Virus record (IMG/VR): IMGVR_UViG_3300042507_002862
Location: 1 to 60,520 of that record
Origin: a virus
Lineage: Duplodnaviria > Caudoviricetes
Reading direction: 5' to 3' (one strand)
DNA: 60,520 nucleotides
The notes under the pieces were generated by a model that was not told the origin of the DNA, searched no databases, and worked only from the letters and a program-made list of their open reading frames with translations. The translations under genes and the position numbers were made by a program. Numbering within the stretch: the stretch's first letter is position 1; each line of letters begins with the position of its first letter. This document shows, piece after piece, positions 4,878 to 29,974 of the stretch.

Positions 4878-6521
4878 ATGTCCATTGATCTCAGGCCCAG
4901 CACCGTTGATCCGCTTGACGCTTCTGCCACGCCGATCACGCCCGATCCGGTTGTGAGAACCAGCACCGCCCCGGGGCGTGGCTGGACTGTGCGTGGGAAT
5001 GTGACTCGCGACGAGATGGTGCGACGGTATGTGGCTGCGGGGCTTTCTCAGGAAGACGCCGAGCGGTTGGCGGACGAGGAGTTGGCCCGCAGTGGTGACC
5101 GTCCGCGTGGCCTGTACGACCAGGACAACACGCCCGAAGGCAACGCCGCATTGGCGCAGCGCGTGCAAGGCGACAAGCGTGCGAAGGACCGGCAGGCGCG
5201 GTTTGAGTCCGACTACAACGAGGCTACTGGCGCGCCGGTGGGGCCCGACATCGCGCCGCCGGCATTGGCGCCCGACGATATCCCGCTGACGCCAGAGCAG
5301 TTGCGCGCCAAGGGCTACAACCCCATGCGAGAGCCGGGAGTCCGCATGCCTGACGGTTCTCGCGTTGCACCTCCGCAGCCGTTGTACACCGAGCGCGAAG
5401 CCCGCGATTACAACATTCGTACGCCCGTTGGTGACGGCATGTACACGCCGTCTGGACGAGACAGGGACATGGAGGCCCGAGGCTATCGTCCGGTTACCAA
5501 TCCCGATGGGACGGTCGCGTATCGGCTTTCGCCCACTGGTGGGGTTGACGGTCTTCCTGGCACGCCCGGCCGGGCCGGTCAGCGGCATGACATGGAAGCC
5601 CCAATGCTGGATGAAACAGGCAATCGCATCATCGGCCCCGACGGCCAGCCGGTCGCTAAGTTCAATACAGACGTGCTGCCCGGCCCGATCTCGCAGAACA
5701 ATGTGGTCTATAAGCAGACCGACTTGGCGAGGCGGCGGCAGGCTGCATACAACTCCGAGCGTCAGCTGTACCGCATGGCCGCTGCGGCCAATATGACGCC
5801 CGCCGAGTTCAGGGCGAAGCACCCGGAATTGTTCACCGACCTAGAGGTGCCCGTTGGTCCCGGCGCCTCTCAGCCCAACGGCCAAGGGCAGTTCATCGCC
5901 CAGCAGGGTGCCCCTGCTGCGCAGGGCGCCGCCAAGCCGCAACTAGTGCGCTCTGGCGTGGGCGCACGGATGGAAGTGCAAGCTGCCCGACAAGCTGATG
6001 CCGAAAAGCGCGAGTCGGCATGGCGTTCGCAGATGATGCTGGCCGGACGCAACCCCGCCAAGAATGCCGTCAATGCCTTCAACGCTCTGGGCGATCCAGC
6101 GATGAATGACTGGCAGCGTGCCGTCATGGCCAATGCTTTGCGCCCTGACATGGACAACACCACCCCGCTGACCGTCGATGCGATGGGTGCGCAGAACGCC
6201 ATGCGGCTGTTGAACGGAATTAACCTTGGTGCTGCGGGTGGACTTGGTGGCCCTGCCGCCGGCATCGCGGCGGATGCGGCCAAGCAGCAACGGCGCGACC
6301 GCGCCAAGACAGAGTTTGATACTTGGCATCAGTCTAACGTGGGCACGCGGGCGTACTCGCAGGGCGACCATGACCGAATGGTTAATTACATGATGAACCA
6401 ATACGGTCTTAGCAGGCCAGAGGCTGAAGCAATAGCGCAGTCGCACGGCCGTCCGGTCGCCACTACGCCCGCCAAGCCGCCGGATGCCGTAGACGCACTG
6501 GAGCCGTCGTACTCCTACTAA
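4878..6521 (+). CDS. Putative internal virion protein
   Basis: 547 aa, AGGAG RBS; function inferred from position only. Confidence 0.6.
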   Translation: MSIDLRPSTVDPLDASATPITPDPVVRTSTAPGRGWTVRGNVTRDEMVRRYVAAGLSQEDAERLADEELARSGDRPRGLYDQDNTPEGNAALAQRVQGDKRAKDRQARFESDYNEATGAPVGPDIAPPALAPDDIPLTPEQLRAKGYNPMREPGVRMPDGSRVAPPQPLYTEREARDYNIRTPVGDGMYTPSGRDRDMEARGYRPVTNPDGTVAYRLSPTGGVDGLPGTPGRAGQRHDMEAPMLDETGNRIIGPDGQPVAKFNTDVLPGPISQNNVVYKQTDLARRRQAAYNSERQLYRMAAAANMTPAEFRAKHPELFTDLEVPVGPGASQPNGQGQFIAQQGAPAAQGAAKPQLVRSGVGARMEVQAARQADAEKRESAWRSQMMLAGRNPAKNAVNAFNALGDPAMNDWQRAVMANALRPDMDNTTPLTVDAMGAQNAMRLLNGINLGAAGGLGGPAAGIAADAAKQQRRDRAKTEFDTWHQSNVGTRAYSQGDHDRMVNYMMNQYGLSRPEAEAIAQSHGRPVATTPAKPPDAVDALEPSYSY

Positions 6522-6527: not shown

Positions 6528-9500
6528 ATGCCACGCTCCCCACTCTTTGACATCTATGATCCCGATGGACTCCTGCAACAGCAGGCCCAGCTGGGGTTGC
6601 TGCCTCGCAATGACGAAGAGCTTGACCCTCTAGGCATCGCCCCTCTCGGAAAACGCAAGGCCCAGCTGTCTGACCTCATGCCCGAGGAGGAGAAGCGTGG
6701 CATGCTTCAGACGCTGGCTTCCGCCGGATCGTCTGGCCTTGCGGGTCTGGGTTGGTTGCTTGATACGCCCGGCGCCATAGTTCGCGGCGGCTTGTCTGGC
6801 GGTCCCGGCAAAGCCCTGTCCGCTCTGTGGGATACAACCGATGAGCGCGTGGACGGCCGCGAACTCCTGCGCCAGTACGGCATGGTTGGCGACCAGGATA
6901 ATTGGGGCAACTTCGGCGGCGGGCTGGCGGCTGAGTTGCTTCTGGATCCGCTCACGTACGCTTCGCTTGGGCTCAATCAGATTGTGGGCAAGGGTGCCAA
7001 GACCGCCGCCGGGAACATTGTGCAGACGGCTGGACTTCTGGATGATTTTGGCGTGCATGCTCGCAACGTGCTTGGCAAGGGCGAGCGCGAAGCGTTGCGC
7101 GAGGCTACGGCCCGGTCTGTGCTTGGGGCAGTCCCAGAAGGAGCGGCCAGGGACGCGGCCATGCGCGACTTCTTGGGCGCCGGTGGCACTGAGGCCATGA
7201 TGGATCAGCCTCTTGCCAGAATGAATCGCATCAGCCTTCCTGGCTTCTCGTCCGACGCCACGGACCTGTACGGCAAGGCTATCGGTGACTGGGCGGCGAA
7301 GACTGGCGATGCTCTTGGCGAAAGCATGATGACCAACCCATACACGGGCCGCATCGCCCGTGGGTTGCAAAGTGCTTTCGATCCAAGCGTCATGGGATTC
7401 GTTGACCGCGACAAGCAGCTGGATGCGCAGACGATCATGGCGGCGCGCAAGCAGCGCGAGCGAGCGGATCGCTTGGCTCTGTCGGGCTTGCAGTACGACG
7501 CCAACCAAGCACTCCGTGAAGCAGGGTCTTCGCTCAGCGACACCGACCTGTCTGATGCGCTGCGTGTTGTTGCCGAGGGTGGCGATGCGCCCAGCAGTCT
7601 CTCGCAGTATTTAGACTTGCCTGCCGTTGAGACGCTGATGAACTACGTTAGCGGCTATCGCGACGAGGCTGTTGAGCAGGCAAAAAGACTTGGCCTGCCG
7701 CTGGAGGAGTTCCGTTCTCGCACGGGCGGCGACTGGTTTCCGCGTCAGCAGCTTGCGTTCGACAGGCCGCAAGTGCCCCAATGGCCAGAGGGGACCGTCC
7801 CGCCAGAGCGCCTCAAGAGGCAGCAGACGCGCGGCTCTAAGCCAGTTGCCTTTGACGATAACCTCTCGCGCGGGCGTGACGAGGCGTACGACGTTATGGG
7901 TCAGAGCGACACGCTCAACCGCATGTCCTTGGACGCGGATCTACAGCAGGCTCTGCGAGGTGCCAAGAACGAGGACGTGCGTGGGATCCTAGAGCGGTGG
8001 TTTGCTGATCCCCAGAACAACGTCCCGCCCAAGATGCGAGATGCCTCTCTGGATGACTTCATTCAACGAGAGGACGGGAGCGTCGATTGGTCCCAAGCGT
8101 CCGGCCCCAGCAACGATCTGTACGGCTGGATGGATTCCATGGACGATGAGGGCAACTACCTATATAAGGCCCCTGCGCTCCCCGCCAACCACCCCTTGAA
8201 CCTGCAGGCTCAGTCGTTGCGCGACCAACTGCAAGCTGTCCCGCACGGAAGTAACGACCCAAATCTTTTGTCATCCTTGCGTGCGCAGCTGAGCGCCGTG
8301 TCTGAGCAGATACCGATGGCGGAGCGCGAGGTGTGGCGCGACAAGTTGCACACTAGGCTGGCCGATTTTGTGCGCGGCATGGATCCGCAACACGCGGCCA
8401 CCGGCCTGCCTGTCTTTGGGCAGAACTCTTTCAACGAGCTTTCTCGCTACGTGCTTGGGCGTGGCAGGACAGAGGTCAACGCCCAAGAGATGCTGAAGAT
8501 CCTGAAGCGGCAGGCCGAGAACACGGCAGCTGATGCGGTGACCGGCGGCGTCAACTACACCGCAGCCGATGCCTTGAAGGCACTCGGCATGACCGGAGAA
8601 ACGGCTCCCGACGTTCTTCGCGAGACGCTTGGAGTCAACAGCCTAGATGACATCAGCTTCAACAAGAAGTACATCGATGACTGGTCGAAGACACTAGAGC
8701 GTGGCAAGACGCCGCCGGAACTGTCGCCGCTGCTGGAGTCGTACGACAACTACACCAAGCGGTTTAAGGCGCTGGCACTTCTCTGGCCCTCGCGGTACTC
8801 GCGAGACGCTTATTCTGGCGCGTTCTCTGCCGCCACCAAAAAGGCGTTCAGCCCATCCGACTGGCTGACTGGCACCCAGATCAACAACGGCGACTACGCG
8901 GGCCTGCTTCGCAAGATCAAAGACCTTCCCCGCTACCGCGATCTGCCGACCGACGATGCCAAGCTGCGGCAGTATCTGATCGAACAGGGCGCAGAAGGGC
9001 TTGGCACCTCCACGGCGAACGACGAACTTCTGTCCGGTGCGGGCAACGCCGGGCTGCGAGGCATGTACCCTGGCGCTGTCGCCCCAGAAACCGAATCGCT
9101 ACTGGACCGCGCCAAGCGTGCGACTTGGAGGGACTGGCTGAATCCGTTCTCCATCTCCACGGCCAGCGGCAACACCAATCCCATCCTTGAGGCTGGCGAC
9201 CGAGCGGCTCAGTTCACTGACGCTGGCAATCGGCACGGTTCATACCTGACGCTCATCCGCAAAGGCTACGCACCAAACGAAGCTGCACGCATCGCCAACC
9301 TGACCCAAGTGGACTACCGCCCCGAGGCTTTTACGAACTTTGAGCGCGACGTGCTGAAACGCGCGTTTCCGTTTTATTCATACACCAAGGGCATCACGCC
9401 GCTCATTGCAGACCAGCTTGCCACCAATCCAGCCGGGATGATGGGGCAGTCAATTCGGGCGCTGAACCGCGGAGGGCAGGCGACCGAGCAGAACTTTACG

Positions 9501-10250
9501 CCGGAACACATGCGGAAGAAGGCGAGCATCCCGCTGCCACCAGACCTTCCTTTCTTTGGGCTGCCAGCAGACTCGCCGCTACGACGTTACCTGTCCAACA
9601 TCGATTTGTTTTACGCCGGACCCGTCAATCTAGTTTCTTCTGGCACTGGCAACAGCTTGCTGGACAAGGCAGGTAGCGGTATTAAGAACACGTTGCTCAA
9701 TGTGCTGGGCCAGAGCAACCCGCTCATCAAAGGCCCGCTGGAAGTCCTGACCAACAGACAGTTCTATTCCGGCCGAGAGATGTCCGACTTGTACTCCATG
9801 CTGGAACAACCCCTGGCGCCAGCGGGATTGGGCCAAGTTGGCCGATTGGCGGAGCAGGCTATCTCCAACGCTCCCGGCGGCTCGCGCCTGCTGGGTGTCG
9901 CGCGGCAGCTGCTGGATGACCGGATCCCCAATTTTGTAGACCGCCTGCCCAAGGTGTTCTTCAACGCTGGAACCGGCCTGACCTTTGAGGACATCGACCA
10001 AGAGAGAACCAAGCAGCAGGCGGCGCGCCAGATGCTCAACAAGATGCTTGAGTCCACCCCCGGTGTCCGCACGTACGAAAACGTCACCGTCCCCGACGAA
10101 GTCCTGCGCTCCATGCCCAAGCAGCAGAGGGACATGTACCTGCTCTATAAGATCGTCCAGTCCGAAGCCGCCAAGCGGGCACGGGACAAGAAGAAGGCAG
10201 AGTTGGCACTAGATCCCCTCCAGGTTCTAGGGGTGACGCAGCAGTTCTAG
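6528..10250 (+). CDS. Large putative internal virion / DNA ejection protein
   Basis: 1240 aa, last gene of the virion operon; size and position resemble large podovirus core proteins. Confidence 0.65.
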   Translation: MPRSPLFDIYDPDGLLQQQAQLGLLPRNDEELDPLGIAPLGKRKAQLSDLMPEEEKRGMLQTLASAGSSGLAGLGWLLDTPGAIVRGGLSGGPGKALSALWDTTDERVDGRELLRQYGMVGDQDNWGNFGGGLAAELLLDPLTYASLGLNQIVGKGAKTAAGNIVQTAGLLDDFGVHARNVLGKGEREALREATARSVLGAVPEGAARDAAMRDFLGAGGTEAMMDQPLARMNRISLPGFSSDATDLYGKAIGDWAAKTGDALGESMMTNPYTGRIARGLQSAFDPSVMGFVDRDKQLDAQTIMAARKQRERADRLALSGLQYDANQALREAGSSLSDTDLSDALRVVAEGGDAPSSLSQYLDLPAVETLMNYVSGYRDEAVEQAKRLGLPLEEFRSRTGGDWFPRQQLAFDRPQVPQWPEGTVPPERLKRQQTRGSKPVAFDDNLSRGRDEAYDVMGQSDTLNRMSLDADLQQALRGAKNEDVRGILERWFADPQNNVPPKMRDASLDDFIQREDGSVDWSQASGPSNDLYGWMDSMDDEGNYLYKAPALPANHPLNLQAQSLRDQLQAVPHGSNDPNLLSSLRAQLSAVSEQIPMAEREVWRDKLHTRLADFVRGMDPQHAATGLPVFGQNSFNELSRYVLGRGRTEVNAQEMLKILKRQAENTAADAVTGGVNYTAADALKALGMTGETAPDVLRETLGVNSLDDISFNKKYIDDWSKTLERGKTPPELSPLLESYDNYTKRFKALALLWPSRYSRDAYSGAFSAATKKAFSPSDWLTGTQINNGDYAGLLRKIKDLPRYRDLPTDDAKLRQYLIEQGAEGLGTSTANDELLSGAGNAGLRGMYPGAVAPETESLLDRAKRATWRDWLNPFSISTASGNTNPILEAGDRAAQFTDAGNRHGSYLTLIRKGYAPNEAARIANLTQVDYRPEAFTNFERDVLKRAFPFYSYTKGITPLIADQLATNPAGMMGQSIRALNRGGQATEQNFTPEHMRKKASIPLPPDLPFFGLPADSPLRRYLSNIDLFYAGPVNLVSSGTGNSLLDKAGSGIKNTLLNVLGQSNPLIKGPLEVLTNRQFYSGREMSDLYSMLEQPLAPAGLGQVGRLAEQAISNAPGGSRLLGVARQLLDDRIPNFVDRLPKVFFNAGTGLTFEDIDQERTKQQAARQMLNKMLESTPGVRTYENVTVPDEVLRSMPKQQRDMYLLYKIVQSEAAKRARDKKKAELALDPLQVLGVTQQF

Positions 10251-11068
10251 CGCATCCCGGCCATATCTAGGCTAGGCACAGCCCGCTTCAGATCCGACAG
10301 AATCACGGGGTCTAGGTAGTGCCGCTTCATGCCGGGGGTCAGATGACCTAAGTGTCCACTGGCGTCGATGCCAGCCAATTGGGCGTAAGTCGCGCTACTT
10401 CTCCGCAGGTATTTGCCTGACCCTGTCAGACCCGCACGCTTGACCAGTGCGCGCATGGCCACTATCATCCGGCTCCTTCCGACGAGGTTTCCGAAAATCT
10501 TCGGGCCGCGCCGGGGAAGCGAACGGATCGCTTCCAGAGCATTGGCGTCAAGGACGATGACATGCTGCTGCCTTGTTTTCTGCAGAACCGTAGCCAGACG
10601 ATCCCCTCGCAGGGAATCGTAGGTAATGGCCAGCAGATCCCCCAGCCGCAGGCCGCTGCTGTAGCCGACCAGAATCCACGCGGGAAGCAGGATTCGGTGC
10701 GGGCAATGGAGCGTACCCCCCGGCATCTCCGCGGCTACCGCAAGCAGGTGGCGCATCTCGTCATGGGTCCAAGCGCGGACCATCGGCAAGGTGTGCTTGA
10801 CACGGCGGATCGGCCGTGTACAATCGTTCACCACAAGGCCGTCTCGGAGGGCGGCTCGTCGCAGGGTGCTAAGCATCCGGCGATGGTTGTTCACCGTGGA
10901 GGCGGCGAGATGACCAAGGGCATGCGTGAGGTACGCATCAATGTTGCTGACGGTCAAGTCGGCCACCCCCCAAGGGAGCCGCTTGGTCAGCACAACGAGT
11001 TGCTCGCGGTAACCGGGGGAAGCCCCCGATTGGAGGGCGTAAGCCTCCGCGAACTCTCTGAGAGTCAT
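10247..11068 (-). CDS. int: Tyrosine recombinase / phage integrase
   Basis: Motifs YSSGLRLGDLL (R), LQKT (K), GKYLRRSSAT (HxxR position), HLGH and RHY (Y); N-terminal SAM-like core-binding region; start placed at MTLREF (11068). Confidence 0.9.
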   Translation of the reverse strand: MTLREFAEAYALQSGASPGYREQLVVLTKRLPWGVADLTVSNIDAYLTHALGHLAASTVNNHRRMLSTLRRAALRDGLVVNDCTRPIRRVKHTLPMVRAWTHDEMRHLLAVAAEMPGGTLHCPHRILLPAWILVGYSSGLRLGDLLAITYDSLRGDRLATVLQKTRQQHVIVLDANALEAIRSLPRRGPKIFGNLVGRSRMIVAMRALVKRAGLTGSGKYLRRSSATYAQLAGIDASGHLGHLTPGMKRHYLDPVILSDLKRAVPSLDMAGMR

Positions 11069-11123
11069 GTTGTTTTCGGCAAGTTTGTGGATCTGGTTGA
11101 GGGGGGTGAGACTACCCCCACTT

Positions 11124-11151
11124 TTGGATCCAGCAAGTCCCCTGCTATACT
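11124..11151 (+). promoter_or_regulatory. Sigma70-type promoter, TTGGAT-N16-TATACT with extended -10 TG
   Basis: TGcTATACT at 11143-11151; 13 nt separate it from the tRNA-like fragment. Confidence 0.55.
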
Positions 11152-11161
11152 CGGCTCGCAT

Positions 11162-11410
11162 ATGGCACCCCTAGCTCAATTGGATAGAGTCGGTCGAAGC
11201 GGCCCCCCAAGTGGGTGGCTCTCCCGAATTCTAAGGGGGGCGGTCCTAGCTTTGCTAGTGGTCGTCATTTTTCTTCACGGCGTGGGCACTCTGCTCACGT
11301 TCCTCGCACTCGGACAGTTGGGCCGAGCGGCGGTTTTGTTCCGCCGTTCCTATCGGAGGGATTCTGTTCGCCGCACGGAGGCGGCTTCTTTTAAGGAGGT
11401 GTACAGATGA
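11162..11410 (+). CDS. Possible small membrane protein overlapping the tRNA fragment
   Basis: 82 aa with hydrophobic ILRGAVLALLVVVIFLHGVGTLLTFLALG; stop overlaps the next ATG; no RBS (would be leaderless). Confidence 0.35.
   Translation: MAPLAQLDRVGRSGPPSGWLSRILRGAVLALLVVVIFLHGVGTLLTFLALGQLGRAAVLFRRSYRRDSVRRTEAASFKEVYR
11165..11190 (+). other. 5' fragment of a tRNA-Arg-like sequence (acceptor 5' strand plus D-arm); candidate attP core
   Basis: GCACCCC TA GCTC AATTGGATA GAGT matches canonical tRNA-Arg positions 1-25; no anticodon arm, T-arm or 3' acceptor strand follows; adjacent to int. Confidence 0.65.
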
Positions 11411-12261
11411 GCAGTTTGCCACGGAAGGTTGTGGGCATGAGCAATGCCGACTACCACTCTCAGAACGATTTTCTTGGCCGGTCCTACCTGCACTCTGTCG
11501 CCAAGTACGGCGGCGAGGCGCAGCGGTGGATGGATCAAGGCTACTCCCTCTTTGGGGGGAACGCCGGAACCCGCACGGGCAGCAAGTTTGACACCATCGT
11601 CACGGCTGTCTGTGAGGGAAAGAAGTTGAGTGACGTTCTCGCCATCCCTCCCGCCGAGGTGCTGGCCAGCAACGGCCACCGCCGGGGGAAAGCCTACGAC
11701 GAGTGGAAGTCGCAGGCCGAGGCCAAGGGGTTGATCGACTGCAACGCGGAAGAGGGATGGCAGCTGGAGGTGATGCTGACGCATCTCCTTGAGAACCCTG
11801 CCGCCAAGGCTCTGGTGGAGCAGACCACTGAGACTCAGGTGTCGGTGTTCTTTGAACTGAACGGCCACCGCTGCAAGGTGCGACCGGACGGCTGCACCCC
11901 GACGTTGTGGTGGGATCTGAAGACCACCTCGTCCACCTGGGACAAGGTCTACCGCAGTGCGATGGACTTCGGGTACGCGGAGCAGGAATGGCTTTACTGC
12001 CAAGGTGCCAAGGCTGTGGGCCTGCCGCACTTCCGCATGCCGTTCGTCTTCGTCCAGACGATGGCTCCGTACGGTGTCCACGTTTTCTATCTGCCGACAG
12101 AGATCGTTGAGGAGGCGGGCCTGCGTATGACCCGCGTGATGGAGGAGGTTCGTCTGAGGCGGGAGACGGGGATCTATGAGTCCGCAGATGCGGGCGAGAT
12201 CACGGAGCTTCAGTTCCCGAATTGGGCGAACAAGAAGGAGGAGGAGGTGGTGACTGTATGA
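11407..12261 (+). CDS. RecE / exonuclease VIII-like PD-(D/E)XK exonuclease
   Basis: MSNADYH, KVRPD...DLKTT and FVFV motifs; AAGGAGGT RBS. Confidence 0.85.
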   Translation: MSSLPRKVVGMSNADYHSQNDFLGRSYLHSVAKYGGEAQRWMDQGYSLFGGNAGTRTGSKFDTIVTAVCEGKKLSDVLAIPPAEVLASNGHRRGKAYDEWKSQAEAKGLIDCNAEEGWQLEVMLTHLLENPAAKALVEQTTETQVSVFFELNGHRCKVRPDGCTPTLWWDLKTTSSTWDKVYRSAMDFGYAEQEWLYCQGAKAVGLPHFRMPFVFVQTMAPYGVHVFYLPTEIVEEAGLRMTRVMEEVRLRRETGIYESADAGEITELQFPNWANKKEEEVVTV

Positions 12262-12905
12262 CTGACAACAACAACATCCTGGGGCCGTCCTGTTCGCCGG
12301 ACACCAGCGAGCTAACCAAGGCTCTGGCCAAGGCACAGGCGGAGTACAAGCACGTTGAGTTGGACGCCGCGAACCCGCACTTCAAAAGCAGGTTCTCGTC
12401 CTACGCGACCTGCTGTGATTCGTTGCGTGGCCCGCTAACCAAGCACGGCCTTGCCTTGCCGGACTTCCGGCCAGGGTTGGTCGGCAGTCAGTGGGTGCTG
12501 GTCGGCACGTTGCGTCACTCCAGTGGTCAGTACATCACGGGCATTGCCCCGCTGGTGAACGGCAAGGGTGACATGCAGGGGTTCGGATCGGCGGTGACTT
12601 ACGCCAAGCGAACTCTGCTGATGAGCCTGACTGGCGGGTTCAGTGGGGAACCCGATGACGATGGCGAGGACAACCGCGTGCAGGCCACCAGTCGGCCGGC
12701 ACCGGCGAACTCCGCTGCAGGGCTGCAGCGAGAGCAGGGATGGAAGACCAAGATCGCTGAAGCGGCCGACGAGGCTGCGGCGAGGAAGGTGATGTCTGAG
12801 GTTGAGTTGCGTCTTCGCGAGAAGGCCATCGACCGCAGCGTGTTCGATAGGTGCAAGGCGGAATTCGTCCGCCACTGGCAGAAGGAGGCCGTTGCTCATG
12901 GCTAG
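12258..12905 (+). CDS. erf: ERF-family single-strand annealing protein
   Basis: ALAKAQ..NPHFKS..QGFGSAVTYAKR..DDDG signature. Confidence 0.9.
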   Translation: MTDNNNILGPSCSPDTSELTKALAKAQAEYKHVELDAANPHFKSRFSSYATCCDSLRGPLTKHGLALPDFRPGLVGSQWVLVGTLRHSSGQYITGIAPLVNGKGDMQGFGSAVTYAKRTLLMSLTGGFSGEPDDDGEDNRVQATSRPAPANSAAGLQREQGWKTKIAEAADEAAARKVMSEVELRLREKAIDRSVFDRCKAEFVRHWQKEAVAHG

Positions 12906-13257
12906 TTCGTTTAACAAGTTCATCGGTGTTGGCAACCTCACCCGAGACGCTGAGTCTCGCATGGTTGGCGAGTCGGAAGTTGCCCGGTATGCGGTCGCCA
13001 TCAACGGCCGCAAACGCAAGGACGGCAGTCAGGATGTGATGTTCCTGGACTGCGACCACTGGCGTGTCGGCAATGTGCTGAGCTACCTCACCCGCGGCAC
13101 CACGGTGCTGGTGGAAGGTGAGCTTGAGCAGCAGCACTGGGAGAAAGACGGCCAGAAGCGGTCGAAGGTTGTCCTTCAGGTTCAGCGTGTCCAGCTGCTT
13201 GGCGGCAAGCGGCAGGAGGCGCAGGCGGAGGAAGAAGAGTTCGCTGAGTTCCGTTGA
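12898..13257 (+). CDS. ssb: Single-stranded DNA-binding protein
   Basis: NKFIGVGNLTRDAE...VLVEGEL...WEKDGQKRSK, acidic C-terminal tail. Confidence 0.93.
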   Translation: MASSFNKFIGVGNLTRDAESRMVGESEVARYAVAINGRKRKDGSQDVMFLDCDHWRVGNVLSYLTRGTTVLVEGELEQQHWEKDGQKRSKVVLQVQRVQLLGGKRQEAQAEEEEFAEFR

Positions 13258-13349: not shown

Positions 13350-13940
13350 ATGCTCAGACTGCGCGACTACCAAACGGAAGTGATCGAATCGCTGCTGGAC
13401 GCAATGCGCCGCGGTGTGAAGTCCACGCTCGTTGGGCTTTTCACCGGCGCCGGCAAAACCGTGATCTTCACTGCACTCGCGGATCGCATCGAAGGACGCA
13501 CGCTGATCATCGCCCCGATGCGTGAGCTTGTCTGGCAGGCAGCTGACAAGGTTCGTCAGGTCACAGACTCTGACCCCGACATAGAGATGGCCGATTACGT
13601 TGCCGAGCGCGACTACTGGCCGGCAAAGGTGGTGGTCGCATCGAAGCAGACGCTGCTGTCCAGCCGCCAAGGCGAGAAGCGATACCGCAGATTCAATGGG
13701 TTCTCTCTCGTCATTGTGGACGAGGCGCACATGCAGTGCAGCGAGCCTGTCATTGAGATGTTGAAGTTCTTCCAAGACCAAGGAGCAATGGTCGCGGGTT
13801 TCACGGCAACGCCGTTTCGGATGGACGGCAAGCCCATGCTAAGGAGTGACGCATGCAGTTCTATCAAGAGTCAGTCTGTAACTACGACCTCCAGTGGGCC
13901 ATCGCCAACGGCTGGGCAGTGCCGCCTGTTTGCAAGCTGA
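13350..13940 (+). CDS. SF2 (DEAH/ResIII-like) helicase, N-terminal ATPase domain
   Basis: LRDYQ, TGAGKT, VDEAH and TATP motifs; similarity ends at about 13840. Confidence 0.88.
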   Translation: MLRLRDYQTEVIESLLDAMRRGVKSTLVGLFTGAGKTVIFTALADRIEGRTLIIAPMRELVWQAADKVRQVTDSDPDIEMADYVAERDYWPAKVVVASKQTLLSSRQGEKRYRRFNGFSLVIVDEAHMQCSEPVIEMLKFFQDQGAMVAGFTATPFRMDGKPMLRSDACSSIKSQSVTTTSSGPSPTAGQCRLFAS

Positions 13941-14914
13941 GCCGGGTGGAGTCGCTGGATCTAAGCAAGGTCAACATTGTCGGCGGCGACTTCAACCAGA
14001 CGAAGCTCGCCGCGGAACTGAACAAGGAAAGCAACTTGCACCGCGCCTGCATGATCACCGCTGAAGAGATGGAGGGGCAGACCGTCCTCTTCACCGGCAG
14101 CGTGTTCGCAGCCAAGGGTGCGACTGAGTACCTGACCCGCAACTACGGAATCCCAGCCGTCTGTGTCTGGGGCACCATGCCTGACGAGGAGAGAGCCGAT
14201 GCACTTGCAGCCTTTAAATCCCGACAGGCCAGGGTCATTGTCAACTGTGCCCTTGTTGCCGTTGGCTTCGACTTCCCACCGACCGCAACCCTCATCCTTG
14301 CCAGACCAACCCGCTCCCGATCCTTCTGGTTGCAGTGCGTTGGCCGAGCCACTCGTCCTCTCCCCGGAGTTGTTGACGGGGACGGCCTTCATACCGCTGC
14401 CGACAGAATTGCTGCAATCGCTCGCTCCGATAAGCCTCATTTCAAAATTGTTGACTGCACAGCAGGAACTCTGGATCACACAGTCATCACAAGTGTGGAC
14501 ATGTTCTGCACCTCGCCCGACGAGGAAGTCAAAGAAGCGGTGCGTAAAGCAGCGGCGCAGTCTCCACTCTCGCAGGAAGAGATAGACGCCTTGGCTGCGG
14601 CCGAGGCGCAGAAGAAGGCGGAGAAGATCGCCAGCGCCAAGCTCATCGAAGAGATGCGCCGCAACACGCAGGGGCGGGGCGAGGGCCGCATCCACGGCAA
14701 GGATGTGGACATCACCTGGAAGGGCGTCCGCTCAGTGGGCACATACAACAACCCGCTCAAGGGAAAGTACGCCGGCTACAAGCTGTCGGAGTTGCCCGAT
14801 CACTACGTTCAATGGGCGGCTGGTAACGACAAGCTGAATGGCTGGATCAAGTCAATGTTCAGGAAGGAACTGGGGAGGAGACATGGCAGAGAAGAACGAT
14901 TTGTTAGTCGATGA
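13853..14914 (+). CDS. SF2 helicase, C-terminal domain, in a separate frame
   Basis: VGFDFP, ARPTRS and QCVGRATR motifs; C-terminal KGKY..LSELPDHYVQW module; AAGGAG RBS. Confidence 0.88.
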   Translation: MQFYQESVCNYDLQWAIANGWAVPPVCKLSRVESLDLSKVNIVGGDFNQTKLAAELNKESNLHRACMITAEEMEGQTVLFTGSVFAAKGATEYLTRNYGIPAVCVWGTMPDEERADALAAFKSRQARVIVNCALVAVGFDFPPTATLILARPTRSRSFWLQCVGRATRPLPGVVDGDGLHTAADRIAAIARSDKPHFKIVDCTAGTLDHTVITSVDMFCTSPDEEVKEAVRKAAAQSPLSQEEIDALAAAEAQKKAEKIASAKLIEEMRRNTQGRGEGRIHGKDVDITWKGVRSVGTYNNPLKGKYAGYKLSELPDHYVQWAAGNDKLNGWIKSMFRKELGRRHGREERFVSR

Positions 14915-20210: not shown

Positions 20211-20544
20211 GTTCCTGCTGGCCAACCAGGCTGCGCTCCTGCAGGTGGTTGCCATTGCCAAGTCTTGGCGCAAAGACCTGCCCTACGTGGAGCAATGGGC
20301 GCTGGTCGATTCGATTGCCCGCGTGCTGATCCCGATCCTGGAAGCGCAGGCCGTGTCGGTTAAGGCGCTAACGAAGCACCGCTTCCATGATGAGGACTTT
20401 GAAGAGACTGACTACGAAGCCCTGGCCTTCAGCACTGGCGTGGAGTTTGCCGCTCTCGGCATCGACTGGAAGTTGCTGATCGATGTGATCATCCCCATTA
20501 TTATTTCGATCCTCAAGGCACTTGCCGCTGGCAAAGAAGAGTGA
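20188..20544 (+). CDS. Membrane protein with a C-terminal TM helix
   Basis: 118 aa; WKLLIDVIIPIIISILKALA. Confidence 0.7.
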   Translation: MLNVKVIKFLLANQAALLQVVAIAKSWRKDLPYVEQWALVDSIARVLIPILEAQAVSVKALTKHRFHDEDFEETDYEALAFSTGVEFAALGIDWKLLIDVIIPIIISILKALAAGKEE

Positions 20545-21482
20545 GCGGGTTCGTCCATCTCCCACCCTACCGGGTCAACCTAGACGCCCCTCGCGCTCTC
20601 CAGCATGGTGTTGACTGGGGTGTCTGTTCCTACGGGATCCCCTCTCTGTGGCAGAAGTCACAGGGCGAAGGCGTGACGGTGGCGGTGATCGACAGTGGCG
20701 TGGCCAAGCACCCTGCCCTGGACGATGCGGTGGTTGACTACCGCAACTTCACCAGCGACTCCGATGCCCATGACACGCTCGGTCATGGCACGCATGTGAG
20801 TGGGATCATCGCCGCCCGCAGCGGGCTGGCCAAAGGGATTGCCCCCGCCTCCAAGATCCTGTCGCTGAAGGTCTTGGGGCACAGCGGCATGGGAAGCAAC
20901 GAGTGGGTGGCGCAGGCCGTGCGTCATGCCGTCGAAGCCAAGGCGCAGATCATCTCCATGTCCTTGGGGTCTAGCCGCACGGACGATGGGGTGCATACCG
21001 CCCTGCGAGAAGCGTACGCCGCCGGCATTGTGGTGGTCTGTGCTGCAGGAAACGACGGTGGCTCGGTCAACTACCCTGCTGCCTACCAAGAAACGGTGGC
21101 CGTTGGTGCGGTCGATAGCCACGGCAATGCCTGTGAGTTCTCCAGCCGCGGGAAGGAGATCGCGGTCGCAGCACCAGGGCAGGACATCACCAGCACATGG
21201 CTGGCCAATGGCTATGCCACCGTGAGCGGTACAAGCATGGCCGCGCCGTTCGTCTCCGGTGTGCTGGCCTTGTACATCAGCGCACAGCACAAGCTGGATC
21301 GCACCGTCAACCATGCCGATGTGATGAAGGCACTGTCCACCACCTGCAAGGACGTTGGCGAGCAAGGCCATGACCACGTCTACGGCTGGGGCTTGGTCGA
21401 TCCGCACAAGCTGCTGAACTTCACCATGCAGGCGAACATCGGCGGCGTCACCATCTTCATCCCCGGAGCCAAGATCCTATGA
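20541..21482 (+). CDS. Subtilisin-like serine protease (S8)
   Basis: Complete triad VAVIDSG / GHGTHVSG / GTSMAAP and oxyanion motif AAGN; no signal peptide or I9 propeptide. Confidence 0.95.
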   Translation: MSGFVHLPPYRVNLDAPRALQHGVDWGVCSYGIPSLWQKSQGEGVTVAVIDSGVAKHPALDDAVVDYRNFTSDSDAHDTLGHGTHVSGIIAARSGLAKGIAPASKILSLKVLGHSGMGSNEWVAQAVRHAVEAKAQIISMSLGSSRTDDGVHTALREAYAAGIVVVCAAGNDGGSVNYPAAYQETVAVGAVDSHGNACEFSSRGKEIAVAAPGQDITSTWLANGYATVSGTSMAAPFVSGVLALYISAQHKLDRTVNHADVMKALSTTCKDVGEQGHDHVYGWGLVDPHKLLNFTMQANIGGVTIFIPGAKIL

Positions 21483-21691: not shown

Positions 21692-22077
21692 AGCATCTGC
21701 CCGTGATCATAGCGGTGGTGGTAGCGGCGCTGGCCTTTGTGCCCGCCGCCAAGAAAGCGGACGGCCCGGTCGCAGCTGCGATGGCAAGTGCCAGCCGATC
21801 TGACCGCGCCCACCTGAAGGGAATCTACCTGTCGCTGGCCGATGTCACTGAGAAGGACAACGGCAAACTCATCAGCACCGTAGGCATGTGGCGACAGCTG
21901 CATATCAACACGCTGAAGCTGGCCGCTGCAGACATGCGTGGCAAGTACGCTGGGCTGGACGTTGCCGTTGAGAAGGTGATGGCCGAGAAGTTCCCGATGG
22001 ATGATGTACCACTTAGCACCTCGCTAGTGAACCAGATCGCAGCTGCATGCCGGGAGGTCGCGAAGCAGAGTGAGTGA
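21688..22077 (+). CDS. Exported or membrane-anchored helical protein
   Basis: 129 aa; MKHLPVIIAVVVAALAFVPA signal sequence. Confidence 0.7.
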   Translation: MKHLPVIIAVVVAALAFVPAAKKADGPVAAAMASASRSDRAHLKGIYLSLADVTEKDNGKLISTVGMWRQLHINTLKLAAADMRGKYAGLDVAVEKVMAEKFPMDDVPLSTSLVNQIAAACREVAKQSE

Positions 22078-24205
22078 CTTCGTACCGCTCAAAGCCTACG
22101 ACGATGGCATGCAGGGCTGGATCAACAGCGCCCGCGAGCGCGTCTTATGGCAGGAGTCCCAGCCCCGGCCGATCTACTCTGAGCCGAATAGCATGGGGTC
22201 CGGCGACGGCAAGCGTGCCCTGCTCTGGCAGTACGTTCGCAAGCTAGACCCACTGTCGTTCACGGAAGTTCAGACGGTAGGAGATTGCTTCGTTGCGGGC
22301 ACCTTGGTTCGCATGGGCGACGGGACCGAAAAGCCCATCGAAGCTATCTCAACAGGCGATGAGGTGGCGTCCCCATTTGGTGGCATTCGCAGGGTACTGT
22401 CTGTCTTTAGCAAGCCGTACCAAGGCACCGTATGCAGCCTTACCGCGGAAGGCTGTATGGATTCCGTGACGGCAACCGAAGACCACCGCTTTGTGTCGTT
22501 TGTTAACAAACAAGAGTTCATCTGGGAGTCTGCTGGTGGCCTGTCTGTTAGTGACCGCATGTTCGTACCGCGCACAGAAATTACCAGAGAAGCGCCGCAT
22601 GTGTTTGACCTATCTGGCGAGCATGGCTGCGCCTCCGATCCGAACGAATTACCCGACGCGCCTACACACAACAGCCGCAGGCTGAAAGCTGATGACGGCA
22701 TGGTGCGCGTCACAAATGGAAAGTATCAGTGCCGCCGACACGTTGAGCTAGACGCAGAAGTGGCATGGCTTATTGGTCTATGGCTGGCGGAAGGGTCTAC
22801 CGACAAAAACAAGAACGGCGAACCAATATCGTTGACGCTCAACTTGGCAAGCGACGAAATGCTGATAGCCAGCAAGGCCAAGAGCATTGTTCAGTCTCGT
22901 TTCGGAACGCCTGCCAAGATCGTAACCATTCCATCAAAGCCGTCTTGCCTGTTTGTTAACATCGCAAGCACGCCGCTGGCTCGCTTAGTGTACCGCATCT
23001 GCGGAAACGGGAACGTGTACAACAAGCGAGTGCCAAAAGAGATACTGACTTCCTGCCGGTCGGTGCGCATGGCATGTCTGCGGGGATGGATGGAAGGCGA
23101 CGGTTGCGTGATGAACAAGCCACGCTCTGGTCGGCCTCAGTACAAAATGTGCAAGGCAAGCGGCGTCTCTGTATGCCGCCCGCTTGTGCGAGACATGAAA
23201 TACCTGGCGGTTTCCTGCGGCGTGCGATGCACGGACACGGCACGCAAGGCGCGCGGGCGTTCACGCGCGGCATCAGAGCTTCACTTCTACGGAGAAGGCG
23301 CGGTGGCTGTTATGCCGTCGCGCTTAAAGACACCAGCGGCAACACGCGGTTCGACTGTGTGGCGAGTGGCTGGTGGGTTTGCTCCGCGAGTCAAATCCAA
23401 TGTCCGCTCGCAGTTTGCAGGCACCGTGTACTGCATAGAAGTTGAAGAGGATCACGCCTTCGTTGCTAACGGATACGCCGTTCACAACTGTGTCAGCCAC
23501 TCCAGTCGGAACGCCCGGGATTGCACGCGCGCGGTGCAGGTATTGCTAGAGAACAGGCCAGAGTCTTTCGTTAAGCGCGGCGCAACGGAGCCCACCTACG
23601 GGGCGCGTGGCCACAGCGGCGAGGGCATGGTCCCCGCCAGGGCGGCGACGTTTGAAAGGGATGTGGGTTTCTGCATCCGGCAGAAGTACGAACCAGTTGA
23701 TCTCTCCAAGTACAACGGCAACATCGGCACCAACTGGGGATCGTCCGGCGTGCCCAACGCAGTTGCAGACATCTGCCGCCAGCACAAGGTGGGGATCATT
23801 CGACAGATCACCACCGTGCGCGATGCGATGGACGCACTGGCCAGTGGGTACGGCCTTCACTCAGGTCAGTACGCCAAGTGGGCTGGCTCACCCAACTCAC
23901 AGAACATCCATCCGCGACAGGCGGGCGGCTGGTCGCACGCAATGGCCACAGTCGGAATGGACGACACCAAAGAGTTCTGGCCGTTCACTGTATTTTTTAT
24001 CGCCAATTCTTGGGGCGGTTGGAACCAGCCAGTGAAAGACTGGCCGTCCTCCTACCCAGAACAAGTACCAGGGATGATCGTCACCAAGGCAGATGACTGG
24101 GCCGTGTGCGTCACCGATGGTGACTGCTGGGCCTACGGAAACGTCGATGGATTCCCCCCTCAGAAGCTGCCCGACTACGGCGCTATCGGACTACTGCAGA
24201 CATGA
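22070..24205 (+). CDS. Papain-like cysteine peptidase (C1-like) precursor containing an intein
   Basis: The spliced extein reads Q-T-V-G-D-C-V-S (Gln plus catalytic Cys), SHAM..VG (His) and ANSWG (Asn); 310 aa after splicing. Confidence 0.85.
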   Translation: MSDFVPLKAYDDGMQGWINSARERVLWQESQPRPIYSEPNSMGSGDGKRALLWQYVRKLDPLSFTEVQTVGDCFVAGTLVRMGDGTEKPIEAISTGDEVASPFGGIRRVLSVFSKPYQGTVCSLTAEGCMDSVTATEDHRFVSFVNKQEFIWESAGGLSVSDRMFVPRTEITREAPHVFDLSGEHGCASDPNELPDAPTHNSRRLKADDGMVRVTNGKYQCRRHVELDAEVAWLIGLWLAEGSTDKNKNGEPISLTLNLASDEMLIASKAKSIVQSRFGTPAKIVTIPSKPSCLFVNIASTPLARLVYRICGNGNVYNKRVPKEILTSCRSVRMACLRGWMEGDGCVMNKPRSGRPQYKMCKASGVSVCRPLVRDMKYLAVSCGVRCTDTARKARGRSRAASELHFYGEGAVAVMPSRLKTPAATRGSTVWRVAGGFAPRVKSNVRSQFAGTVYCIEVEEDHAFVANGYAVHNCVSHSSRNARDCTRAVQVLLENRPESFVKRGATEPTYGARGHSGEGMVPARAATFERDVGFCIRQKYEPVDLSKYNGNIGTNWGSSGVPNAVADICRQHKVGIIRQITTVRDAMDALASGYGLHSGQYAKWAGSPNSQNIHPRQAGGWSHAMATVGMDDTKEFWPFTVFFIANSWGGWNQPVKDWPSSYPEQVPGMIVTKADDWAVCVTDGDCWAYGNVDGFPPQKLPDYGAIGLLQT
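22286..23488 (+). mobile_element. Intein with LAGLIDADG homing endonuclease (401 aa)
   Basis: Block A CFVAGT, block B TEDHRF, WLIGLWLAEGS and LRGWMEGDG motifs, block F VYCIEVEEDHAF, block G VHN/C. Confidence 0.95.
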
Positions 24206-24895: not shown

Positions 24896-25112
24896 AACTG
24901 AACTGTGGATGCTCGGCATATCGGTTGCCGCAGCCGTCATCCCGTGGGCTTTCAGCCTGCATGCCAAGGTCGCGGTCATCGCCAATAGCGTGGAGAGTTT
25001 GCCCCGCATGCTGGACGAACTGCGACAGACGATAGAGGAACATGAGGTTCGTCTCAATCAGCATGACAAAAAGATTGAAGCTCTCGGCCAAGCGTCAACG
25101 ACTGGTCGTTGA
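24885..25112 (+). CDS. N-terminal TM plus coiled-coil protein (holin/spanin-like architecture)
   Basis: 75 aa; LWMLGISVAAAVIPWAF followed by a heptad pattern. Confidence 0.55.
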   Translation: MSPETELWMLGISVAAAVIPWAFSLHAKVAVIANSVESLPRMLDELRQTIEEHEVRLNQHDKKIEALGQASTTGR

Positions 25113-25629
25113 GTACATGCCGCTAGCAGAAATGCTGGCCAAGTATTTCCTGCAGAACCGCCCGCACTGGCAGCGAGGCGTGCTAGTAGCAGACCTGCAG
25201 AGCGAAGGCTACCTCGCCATCTGCAAAGCGGCTCGCACCTATGATCCCAAGCGACTGCCCTACCCAAAGGCGTACTTCGCACGGGCCTGCCTCAATGCGA
25301 TGTACAAGCAGATCAAGAAGTTGAGCCGTCAGCCTGGCGACATACGCATCACGCTGGAAGAAGCGGCCGACCTGCTGCCAGAGTTCGACCATTTGGATCA
25401 CATCAGACTGGCGATAGCTGATCTCCCAGAGTGGGAGCAAGAGCTAGCTACCGACAGGTTCATCCACGGCAAGACACTCAGAGCGCTGGCTGAGTCGCAT
25501 GAAATTTCGCTTCGCGCTGCTGCTCGGCGGTCCACTGCTCTGGCGAAAGTCTTGGCGGGATCCTTGGGTATCCAGCTACCGCAGCCCGGTGCAGATTCCT
25601 TGTGTCAGTCAGGCCATAGTAGCCCCTGA
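25063..25629 (+). CDS. Phage-encoded sigma70-family factor (region 2 plus region 4; FliA/SigF-like)
   Basis: LVVEYMPLA..., DLQSEGYLAICKAARTYDP; region-4 HTH LPEWEQEL...GKTLRALAE. Confidence 0.85.
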   Translation: MTKRLKLSAKRQRLVVEYMPLAEMLAKYFLQNRPHWQRGVLVADLQSEGYLAICKAARTYDPKRLPYPKAYFARACLNAMYKQIKKLSRQPGDIRITLEEAADLLPEFDHLDHIRLAIADLPEWEQELATDRFIHGKTLRALAESHEISLRAAARRSTALAKVLAGSLGIQLPQPGADSLCQSGHSSP

Positions 25630-26251
25630 CACCCTTGTGATTGGGCGGCTTGCGAAGTTCCTTCTTGCATAGGTGCAGGCAGATGGCGGAGAAGGACTTC
25701 CCCTCCTCGCGCATGACCACAACCAGACTGCCGATGTCACGCTCCGGTTGGTAGGGAACGAACGCCTTGTTCTTCACCACCCAACCAAGCGGTCGCAACT
25801 TACCGCGTGGTCGGAAGTGGGCGTTGAGATAGGAATGGATCTCACGCTGTCGCTGCCCGGAAATCTGACTGCTGTACTGGGCGAACGCGGACATGGTGTT
25901 GTAGCTCAACTCGCCTTGGATCGTCATCACATCCAGGCTGTTGTCCAAGAACTTCAGCTGAACGCCAAGCTCTTTGCACTGAGCCAAGGTCTGCGCCGCA
26001 TCCAGCACCGACCTGAACACACGGTCGAAGGTGCAGAACACCACCACATCGCCGGCCTTCAGCTTGTCCCATAGCACCCTGCCCTGCCGGCGCTTGTGCA
26101 AGGGGATCTTGTACGCCGACTGATCCTCGTCAACGAACACCTCCCCAAACTCCAAGCCCGACTGCTCAGCGTACGCACGCAGCCGGATAGCCTGGGCATC
26201 AGCTGAGTTCTCTTGCTTGTCCGTAGACACACGGGCATATCCGTACAGCAT
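25478..26251 (-). CDS. Serine recombinase (resolvase catalytic domain plus short recombinase-like tail)
   Basis: YGYARVSTDKQ (catalytic Ser), DRVFRS; C-terminal PLGW..E..GKSFSAIC. Confidence 0.9.
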   Translation of the reverse strand: MLYGYARVSTDKQENSADAQAIRLRAYAEQSGLEFGEVFVDEDQSAYKIPLHKRRQGRVLWDKLKAGDVVVFCTFDRVFRSVLDAAQTLAQCKELGVQLKFLDNSLDVMTIQGELSYNTMSAFAQYSSQISGQRQREIHSYLNAHFRPRGKLRPLGWVVKNKAFVPYQPERDIGSLVVVMREEGKSFSAICLHLCKKELRKPPNHKGVRGYYGLTDTRNLHRAAVAGYPRIPPRLSPEQWTAEQQREAKFHATQPAL

Positions 26252-28860: not shown

Positions 28861-29171
28861 CAGTCGCACCCTCCTCTCGCAGTAGGAACGTCCATGTCCA
28901 CCACATGGCAGGACAGGCCGGGAACAATCGACCTGTTGAACCGCTGCCACACCTCGCCCTCTGCCTCCTCCCGAATCCACTTGTGTGCCGCGTCCTCGTT
29001 GAGGAACGGGCCATACACATCGGTGCCATGGTGCATGGACTGAACCAGCACCACGCAATGCCTGGCCGGTTGGTATTCCGCATAGTGCGTGGCCGCTTCC
29101 GGCTGGAACCCGACACCATCGAACAACTTCCACCGCTTCGTCTTCTTCTTAACCGTCTTAGCCTTGCTCAT
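28860..29171 (-). CDS. Hypothetical early protein
   Basis: 103 aa, GGAGGTGAGCGATG start. Confidence 0.65.
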   Translation of the reverse strand: MSKAKTVKKKTKRWKLFDGVGFQPEAATHYAEYQPARHCVVLVQSMHHGTDVYGPFLNEDAAHKWIREEAEGEVWQRFNRSIVPGLSCHVVDMDVPTARGGCD

Positions 29172-29748
29172 CGCTCACCTCCACGCCCCACTGGGTAGCC
29201 ATCGCATGTGCAATACCGGGGTAGGTCTTGCTCCGAATCTTCCACCGATCCGGTGATGGCCCTAACTTGTTCTGTCCACTGGGAGTCTGGTTCTCCCATC
29301 GTCCACGCATCTGCATCACAGCCGTTGGTTGCAGGGGGTTCAGTCCCTTCAACCAGAGGCATGTCTTCTTGGATTCCGGATGGCCGAACTGGTAGGGCTG
29401 GATGATCTGATCCGGCCTGCGAATCCGACTGCTGATCACAGACACTGGGTTCTCCAGTGCTATGCGTGGGATGGGCGCATCCATCAGCGTCTGCACAAAC
29501 TCCAACGCTTCAGCCTGTTCGACCTGCTTGCGGTGGAAGTGACGGGCACCACTGACCGCAAGGTGGGTGCATGGCGGGTGAGCGATCATCAGATCCCAGT
29601 CGCTAGTCAGAACTTGGCGAACATCACCCTGTATGTGCGGCCCACCATCTTCTGCGGGCAGGAGGTCACAGCTCCACGCTTGGTGCCCCAACTCACGGAA
29701 CGCACGGCGAACCGTGCCACTGAACTCACACGCTACCAGTACTCGCAT
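29158..29748 (-). CDS. C5-cytosine DNA methyltransferase-like protein (short phage type)
   Basis: MRVLVACEFSG (motif I variant), AHPPC (motif IV) and ENP (motif VI). Confidence 0.8.
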   Translation of the reverse strand: MRVLVACEFSGTVRRAFRELGHQAWSCDLLPAEDGGPHIQGDVRQVLTSDWDLMIAHPPCTHLAVSGARHFHRKQVEQAEALEFVQTLMDAPIPRIALENPVSVISSRIRRPDQIIQPYQFGHPESKKTCLWLKGLNPLQPTAVMQMRGRWENQTPSGQNKLGPSPDRWKIRSKTYPGIAHAMATQWGVEVSDEQG

Positions 29749-29974
29749 CCTTGCTTCTCCTTCCCGCAGGGCGGTGATCGTTCCAATAAAAGCCGCAGTC
29801 CTCGCCGGGAACACCAAGCTCCACGGACTCACATCGCAGGCCAAACGCCGGGCCATGGGCATGCAACGCATACTCAATGGCTAGGTGCCACTCATCGGCC
29901 GTGACCACATAAGTGTACGGCTCCTCGCCATCCTCCCGCTCCTCACCGGAGATGGTCACGGTGTAGTCATCCAT
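29726..29974 (-). CDS. Hypothetical early protein
   Basis: 82 aa, GGAGGTGAGCGATG start. Confidence 0.65.
   Translation of the reverse strand: MDDYTVTISGEEREDGEEPYTYVVTADEWHLAIEYALHAHGPAFGLRCESVELGVPGEDCGFYWNDHRPAGRRSKDASTGSV

Follow-up and report, generated by a model that had tools for sequence, protein, structure and literature searches.

Elements that insert into tRNA genes are said to cross over at three classical sublocations, the anticodon loop, the T-loop and the 3′ end (reportedly set out by Williams in 2002), and a reversed orientation of the tRNA target was reportedly described by Zhao and Williams in the same year (J Bacteriol 184:859). The footnote to Islander Table 1 agrees with these three sublocations. 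The table itself counts 159 islands with a 5′ fragment of the tRNA gene against 3760 with a 3′ fragment (3919 in total). In the passage of PMC6563490 that cites Zhao & Williams 2002 and others, 5′-distal tRNA recombination is described as much less frequent than recombination at the 3′ side. For archaeal pTN3-like elements, the relevant passages of PMC8371274 describe an attB that is the 5′ half of a tRNA gene, and a restored tRNA expressed from the promoter region of the element (that of the integrase), a situation “seldomly encountered in bacteria”. Integration with a 5′ tRNA fragment is already known, and it is rare. Here we examine a candidate case in a phage from lake water, IMG/VR virus record IMGVR_UViG_3300042507_002862 (Duplodnaviria; Caudoviricetes), whose genome of about 60 kb is complete. 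The window, by which we mean the whole stretch of DNA analysed, is the entire record of 60,520 bases, rated 100% complete and without end repeats. Positions 11069–11410 of the window lie beside a tyrosine integrase gene (int), and from sequence comparison we consider it probable, at about 0.7, that they hold the phage attachment site (attP) in the rare reversed orientation, carrying the 5′ part of tRNA-Arg(ACG).

The locus had been singled out in an earlier reading of the sequence by a model, made without database searches (the original prediction), which saw in it a candidate attP with a tRNA-Arg 5′ end and a promoter of its own, and proposed that integration works as a genetic switch. Below, we describe the block and its match to host genes, the evidence from relatives and the elements that surround the block, and then weigh integration against other explanations.

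Results

The sequence GCACCCCTAGCTCAATTGGATAGAGT is read directly at 11165–11190, 97 nt from the start of the integrase gene and 13 nt behind TGCTATACT. The original prediction had described an extended −10 followed by tRNA bases 1–25 only, and both are indeed there to be read, the tRNA being tRNA-Arg(ACG). Positions 11165–11189 (plus strand), the proposed att core, equal bases 1–25 of the tRNA-Arg(ACG) gene of Planctomycetota, and the invariant part of the block is 11165–11187 (tRNA bases 1–23). We searched these first 23 bases as an exact 23-mer in one genome per prokaryote species, and at least 120 stretches matched. Among the matches listed, Planctomycetota lineages are named in 77 of 80 record titles, and 118 of 120 host loci are identical to the window over exactly 25 nt (the other two over 23 nt). 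In 58 of the 60 loci checked, a tRNA-Arg gene begins with the matching bases, the anticodon being ACG in 57 and TCG in one; the remaining two are a gene truncated at the end of its locus and a locus without a tRNA. At base 26 the phage has T (11190) and the host has C, and upstream of the block the identity between phage and host extends over just 0–2 nt in the 120 loci. The fragment is therefore terminal, in that it begins at tRNA base 1 and not inside the gene. When a host tRNA gene was compared with the whole window by blastn-short, 11165–11189 was the sole match (E 3e-9). Judged by these matches, the resemblance of 11165–11189 to a tRNA gene is real and far beyond chance. ARAGORN called no tRNA in the window and Rfam had no match at 10900–11600, two blanks that are expected because the piece is only 25 nt long.

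Within one Planctomycetota order, the 23-mer is present in 114 of 251 sampled genomes, as a single copy in 110 and as two copies in four. The phage host is most likely a member of the Planctomycetota, going by the tRNA match; the original prediction had expected such a match to suggest a host, and it has done so. As a separate observation, the phage encodes a subtilase (Peptidase_S8, E 3e-55; 20541–21482, plus strand) whose DNA is 66–68% identical over about 230 nt to genes of several Planctomycetota genomes, which may be a second, weak link to a host in this phylum.

The gene beside the block (10247–11068, minus strand) encodes a tyrosine integrase of 273 aa, as identified from the list of open reading frames (ORFs), Pfam and PHROG; in PHROG it matches phrog_1 “integrase” at E 3.5e-19. 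Its start is the ATG at 11068, not 11161, and the resulting N-terminus (MTLREF...) is common to all relatives. Residues R141, K164, R222, H242 and Y251 are invariant across alignment A2, and we take them to be the catalytic motif of tyrosine recombinases. The stop of this minus-strand gene (10247) overlaps the stop of a converging 1240-aa ORF on the plus strand (6528–10250), so the other flank is not free and a site beside int must fall in 11069–11406. The overlap had been noted correctly in the original prediction, which also called this stretch the only free space next to int; that part does not hold, as an 82-codon ORF for a predicted membrane protein (11162–11410) fills it. As to a lambda-type complex attP, which has repeated arm-type sites around the core and an extra, arm-binding N-terminal domain in Int, 10950–11450 holds short and weak repeats only, and Int is 273 aa long.

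Relatives of the locus were collected as 17 viral contigs found via the integrase (16 of them with the upstream region), 30 metagenome contigs found via the integrase alignment (a few being the same records as viral ones), and one locus, L222, found via the exonuclease that follows the small ORF. Of these 48 relative loci, 47 include the att region, and the last one, L017, holds the integrase C-terminus only. A tRNA 5′-like block lies 50–110 nt from the int start in all 47 loci (34 distinct upstream sequences, window included). An exact 23-mer is present in 16 of 16 viral loci, 16 of the 30 metagenome loci and L222, at integrase identities that go down to 55%; in alignment A1, no other invariant run comes near the block in length. 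Among nine close relatives, none of its 23 sites varies; in the ORF body downstream, 94 of 160 sites vary (32 of 53 first, 21 of 53 second and 41 of 54 third codon positions). Three relatives have AAG and one has AGC in place of the ATG ahead of the block, and there too the block stays exact. Because the block is invariant, synonymous sites included, while the ATG of the ORF is lost, the constraint acts on the bases and not on the peptide.

Eight further loci have tRNA-Arg-like variants in which the identity ends at base 18–21. In six loci with the most distant integrases (50–54% identical), the block reads GGGCAGCTAGCTCAGTTG..., the 5′ end of a different tRNA, which is one mismatch away from tRNA-Val(CAC) and tRNA-Ile(GAT) genes. 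This most distant integrase clade (L180–L184, L187), with its GGGCAGCTAGCTCAGTTGG/A... core, keeps the same box, small ORF and hairpin. An attachment site is supported by the block adjoining int in every relative, equalling the end of a host tRNA gene, and switching tRNA along with the integrase clade, and the original proposal of an attP candidate with the tRNA-Arg 5′ end is strengthened by the same comparison. A full tRNA at the site was found in none of the 48 relative loci (L017, without the att region, included). The place of the integrase region varies greatly among related contigs, and a distant blastn search with 9000–13000 against the phage collection gave no match.

Ahead of the block, the sequence holds a promoter-like element (11124–11151, plus strand) that consists of a −35-like TTGGAT at 11124–11129, a 16-nt spacer and the extended −10 TGcTATACT at 11143–11151, with 13 nt between its end and tRNA base 1. 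A TAnnnT hexamer ends 8–13 nt upstream of the block in 27 of the 34 distinct sequences and is absent at other offsets from 0 to 34. The sequence around this box differs among clades (GCTATACT, GCTACAAT, GGTATGAT, GCTAAACT and GTAAAAT). For host tRNA-Arg genes, 114 distinct upstream sequences give a TAnnnT peak at 9–14 nt ahead of base 1, with the hexamer there in 38 of them. The phage box thus appears to occupy the place of the −10 of the native tRNA promoter and would presumably act as a promoter there, and the claim that the site has its own −10-like box at the distance of a tRNA promoter agrees with the comparison of relatives. The conserved box fits an element that has to supply the promoter of the tRNA, as in the passages of PMC8371274 on 5′-side integration. 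Between the int start and the box lies a G-rich/C-rich hairpin, GGGGGTGAGACTACCCCC, followed by ACTTTT (11102–11119, plus strand), which the scanner classed as terminator-like. The fold of 11095–11135 is not exceptional (dG −15 kcal/mol, z −0.88), and its G-run and C-run are kept in close relatives. Candidate roles for this hairpin are an insulator, a site for the integrase or an accessory factor, or a terminator.

Behind the box, the block forms the opening codons of the conserved small ORF (82 codons, 11162–11410, plus strand), which is recognised from the translations of relatives and from the variability by codon position. The predicted membrane protein has one hydrophobic segment and a conserved LGQL/LGQF motif, and it had no match among PHROG families. 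The stop of the ORF overlaps the exonuclease ATG at 11407 (ATGA). Its reading register through the block is kept even in the clade with the other tRNA core. Since an in-frame TTG (11180) sits inside the block, the small ORF could survive integration.

Towards the end of the small ORF there is a terminator- or attenuator-like hairpin (11370–11392, plus strand; terminator-like by the scanner) with stem strands GCCGC and GCGGC around ACGGAG and a following TTCTTTT, directly before the ribosome-binding site AAGGAGG (11393–11399). Its folding energy is unexceptional against shuffles (dG −9.9 kcal/mol, z −0.64). In 25 distinct sequences, 125 of 125 cells are paired, as against 38–67% in slid controls; one position has three pair types (C-G in 16, G-C in seven and U-A in two), and the covariation score was reached by none of 500 shuffles. 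These sequences were chosen by a regular expression that does not force pairing, with six loci unmatched (some with variants recognisable by eye) and three too short. The hairpin may terminate transcription. A different hairpin, CCCCCC-NNNN-GGGTGG at 11203–11220, which had seemed to be a covarying RNA, was rejected, since coding accounts for it better (PPSGW, with a switch of the serine codon between AGT and TCG).

In the Planctomycetota, integration at the 5′ side of tRNA-Arg occurs via other elements. Genome contig G434:C95 (L204, 18500–38000) holds a 15.2-kb integrative element at tRNA-Arg(ACG), with two same-strand copies of the 23-mer. The upstream copy is a 5′ fragment (bases 1–39) that ends in the anticodon loop and stands behind a native-looking TACAAT box. 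The downstream copy is the intact tRNA-Arg(ACG), directly adjoined by a divergent gene for a 393-aa tyrosine integrase (PF00589, E 6.6e-15) that is only 26% identical to the phage integrase over 146 aa. The cargo includes HTH_17, DUF5906, GMT-wHTH and DUF5131 genes. On G001:C31 (L153, 98000–114000; 5793–11820), a tRNA-Arg fragment of bases 1–23 lies 5,953 bp upstream of the intact gene, and the island lies between copies of a 24-nt direct repeat whose end at base 23 coincides with that of the invariant block in the phage family. The interval holds two RAMP-superfamily genes and a DUF7689 gene and no integrase, and an rve transposase gene is found just past the tRNA; this stretch may be the remnant of an island with CRISPR type III-like genes. 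A similar base-23 fragment occurs in genome G002, on a separate contig.

Other candidates of this kind were set aside. The fragments of G002 (L154/L155) and G003 (L156/L157) have no integrase or phage genes in their surroundings; the double copy in G518 is the same tRNA present on two contigs; and in G574:C70 the core is at the end of a contig that is without phage homologues. One of the G003 loci (L156, on G003:C210, at about 6238–6303 on the minus strand) holds about 46 nt of a tRNA-Arg 5′ part, mismatched at several bases and not called as a tRNA, and may be an old displaced fragment that has decayed. Around tRNA-Arg in the 120 host loci, a search for phage genes gave three weak, unrelated matches only. 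In one order, 43 of 401 genomes have chromosomal homologues of the phage integrase, all of them distant (best 122 bits). Four integrase homologues from Planctomycetota (L192, L193, L198 and L200) lie 200–330 nt from 3′ tRNA fragments, one of them tRNA-Met-like, in the conventional orientation, and because such distant chromosomal homologues adjoin 3′ fragments, the wider integrase family appears to target tRNA genes.

Elsewhere in the window, G+C is about 60% and the plus strand holds nearly all genes. The recombination/replication operon starts directly behind the small ORF with a PD-(D/E)XK exonuclease gene (11407–12261, plus strand; Pfam DUF3799; phrog_412 “exonuclease VIII”, E 1.9e-33) and continues on the same strand, by Pfam, with ERF (12222–12905), SSB (12802–13257) and helicase parts (13350–14914; ResIII and Helicase_C). 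The helicase is split over two overlapping plus-strand ORFs in different frames, 13350–13940 (ResIII/DEAD) and 13853–14914 (Helicase_C), and the split may be genuine or stem from a frameshift or a sequencing error. Near-exact matches of 31–32 nt in the SSB gene resemble conserved coding sequence rather than CRISPR spacers.

The phage has a second recombinase, a small serine recombinase of 257 aa (25478–26251, minus strand; Pfam Resolvase N-terminal domain, E 2e-27), which is too short for a large serine integrase and may be an invertase or a dimer resolvase. A protein with sigma-70 region 2 (25042–25629, plus strand; E 7e-6) is a candidate phage-encoded sigma factor, and because of it the phage’s own promoters may escape scans for the sigma-70 consensus. 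A 711-aa protein (22070–24205, plus strand) has intein-splicing, Hint and LAGLIDADG domains, indicating an intein inserted in some phage gene. Finally, a DNA methyltransferase gene (29158–29877, minus strand; phrog_757, E 1e-71) lies inside a minus-strand block of about 25.5–33 kb with negative GC skew and otherwise uncharacterised genes.

Discussion

In the reading that we prefer, the tyrosine integrase would recombine the block in 11069–11410 with the same bases of the host tRNA-Arg gene. Strand exchange would take place inside bases 1–23, the acceptor-stem/D-arm part, and perhaps before base 19, because in some relatives the tRNA identity ends at base 18–21. The original prediction had placed the crossover in the D-arm region, and the comparison of relatives supports the acceptor/D-arm part; the exact place, like integration itself, we infer. 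At the int-side junction, the order would become int (minus strand), the phage promoter-like box and a complete tRNA-Arg, so that the host tRNA would be transcribed from the phage −10 box. At the other junction, the host tRNA promoter would be followed by bases 1–23, the small ORF, the T-run hairpin and the exonuclease/ERF/SSB operon. In all 47 loci the fragment comes from the 5′ end of the tRNA gene and is directed away from the int-side arm, an orientation that would place the regenerated gene beside int. The swap of promoters would be a structural consequence of the integration model, and any regulatory use of it is a further step.

A number of observations weigh against integration, and we bring them together here. 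The integrase is short (273 aa), and its match to Pfam Phage_integrase (PF00589; E 3e-5) scores 24.3 bits, under the 27.1-bit gathering cut-off. The consensus scanner called no sigma-70 promoter in 10900–11600, a blank that at the box arises because the best −35, TTGGAT, matches at three of six positions. The second core type, that of the most distant clade, has no exact match in 301 sampled Planctomycetota genomes. No repressor was seen in the 38 ORF translations scanned, which are part of the genome, and to that extent the remark in the original prediction that no CI-like repressor is evident holds. Integrated copies did not appear either. The predicted int-side junction pattern had no match in JGI metagenome contigs, and all 47 att-region loci are in the non-integrated form, none with a tRNA. 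Twenty lake metagenome runs contain the stretch, and in four of the four examined, contigs bridge the core in the attP form and as strain variants, with no loose ends at 11165–11190; this check was made at contig level, where rare forms are dropped, so it is no evidence against rare junctions. In 401 sampled Planctomycetota genomes, the integrase protein had no match at E ≤ 1e-10. The integrase profile found no close homologue in 401 genomes of one order (best 122 bits) and none in the five lake genomes whose tRNA loci matched. A search with 20 kb of phage DNA against the 401 genomes of that order gave no long match, with about 200 genomes matching the tRNA piece only. The attL/attR junctions or related prophages to which the original prediction had pointed were thus found neither in contigs nor in sampled genomes. 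As these searches are samples or contig-level data, we regard integration as unproven rather than disproven.

The blank searches for lysogens are also what would be expected if the locus were not an integration site at all. The recombinase could then be a Xer/Cre-like resolvase of a non-integrating phage, a role with which its short length and weak Pfam score agree, and the block could be its resolution site or else imitate, as RNA in the small-ORF leader, the 5′ end of a tRNA. The varied contig positions of the integrase region are in line with this, as they are expected of free, circularly permuted genomes. A resolution site, however, has no reason to equal bases 1–23 or 1–25 of the host tRNA-Arg gene, or to switch to the 5′ end of another tRNA, and the phage already encodes a serine recombinase that may serve as a resolvase. 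For an RNA mimic, the acceptor stem would require its 3′ strand as well, but no sequence past base 25 is tRNA-like (P 0.02–0.8), and the 83-nt fold is unremarkable (z −0.04). We judge both forms of this explanation improbable. Much less credible still are a tRNA gene of the phage that has decayed, and an N-terminus of the small ORF that is conserved by chance or for purely coding reasons. Relatives of the L004 type do have GGGGTGC, which complements the 5′ strand of the acceptor stem, 77 nt from base 1, together with a T-loop-like CGAATC, and the local alignment of L004 is marginal (P 0.02, uncorrected). The window, L013, L014, L015 and L172, in contrast, have no significant likeness past base 25 (P 0.11–0.83), and a decayed whole tRNA was rejected, the likeness being non-significant in five of the six sequences tested. 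The outcome that the original prediction named as fatal to it, relatives with a full tRNA here, did not materialise: neither the window nor the 48 relatives hold a tRNA, and Rfam had no match. A pseudogene would drift, yet none of the 23 sites varies, synonymous sites included. As for coding, the block is exact in four relatives that lack the ORF start codon.

If the locus is an attachment site, there is still the matter of what integration would do to the genes next to it. According to the original prediction, the recombination/replication operon of the free phage is transcribed from the promoter at 11143, and integration cuts this promoter away, silences the operon and so takes the place of a repressor. 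The integration geometry would indeed part the phage −10 box from 11190 onward, the scanner found no other consensus promoter between 11190 and 11407, and the blank for a repressor among the translations scanned is in keeping with it. The operon, however, would end up behind the host tRNA-Arg promoter, with its boxes at 9–14 nt in 38 of 114 upstreams, which is a replacement of the promoter and not its removal. In addition, the conserved T-run hairpin stands between the promoter and the gene at 11407 in every state, the free state included, and because of this the box may mainly make an RNA of about 230 nt with the small ORF. The candidate phage sigma factor adds that the phage’s own promoters may not resemble sigma-70 sites. 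The silencing of the operon on integration therefore finds no support in the predicted junctions, and a switch of this form has, in our view, little probability.

Returning to the attP reading, one may ask whether the swap at both junctions is put to use. In such a scheme, host tRNA-Arg(ACG) would depend on the phage promoter, and the strong host tRNA promoter would drive the gene of the small membrane protein and, via the attenuator hairpin, the operon; the att site would at once sense that the phage is integrated and give it a hold on an essential host tRNA, and the whole family would share a D-arm sublocation outside the three classical ones. Taken jointly, we consider these propositions unlikely, although they follow the geometry given above. 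The attP reading by itself has several implications. It gives a concrete host link (Planctomycetota, tRNA-Arg(ACG)) for an uncultured family of lake phages of about 60 kb. The relatives form a natural series of 34 distinct sequences of a rare reversed tRNA attachment site, and this series makes it possible to set core, box and hairpin side by side between integrase clades with different tRNAs. Should integration be borne out, the integrase and its core (about 25 bp) would give Planctomycetota, a phylum poor in genetic tools, a compact tool of the site-specific kind, and the phage would be a case of an element that takes over the transcription of an essential tRNA.

With respect to known systems, a literature search on D-loop/D-arm crossover and on temperate phages of Planctomycetes gave nothing beyond the passages cited above, and we claim no priority. 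The 5′ class of Islander and the reversed target orientation reportedly described by Zhao and Williams share with the phage a tyrosine integrase, an attP with the 5′ end of the tRNA, a fragment displaced upstream and the need for the element to supply a promoter. The phage fragment differs from these in being very short (23–25 nt, ending in the D-arm) and in overlapping the start of a conserved ORF, and its site belongs to a family of phages of about 60 kb from an under-studied phylum. The pTN3-like elements (Cossu et al. 2017; Krupovic & Bamford 2008), in the passages cited above, likewise use the 5′ half of a tRNA gene and express the tRNA from a promoter of the element; however, their archaeal “suicidal” integrase gene is reportedly split by integration, whereas the int gene of the phage would stay whole, with the core outside it. 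The island on G434:C95 is like the phage in target gene, in phylum and in the predicted geometry, with a divergent integrase gene beside the regenerated tRNA and the fragment upstream. It differs in that its fragment extends to base 39, its integrase has 393 aa and its cargo is P4-like (HTH_17, DUF5906) and not a tailed-phage genome. A conventional attP with a 3′ fragment also combines a tyrosine integrase with a core that equals one end of a tRNA gene, and it regenerates that gene, but the orientation in the phage is the opposite, and the sublocation, in the acceptor/D-arm part, would lie outside the three classical ones. Particular to the phage site are a very short D-arm fragment that overlaps the start of an ORF, a hairpin and a conserved box, a probable host in the Planctomycetota, and a family series in which the tRNA is switched.

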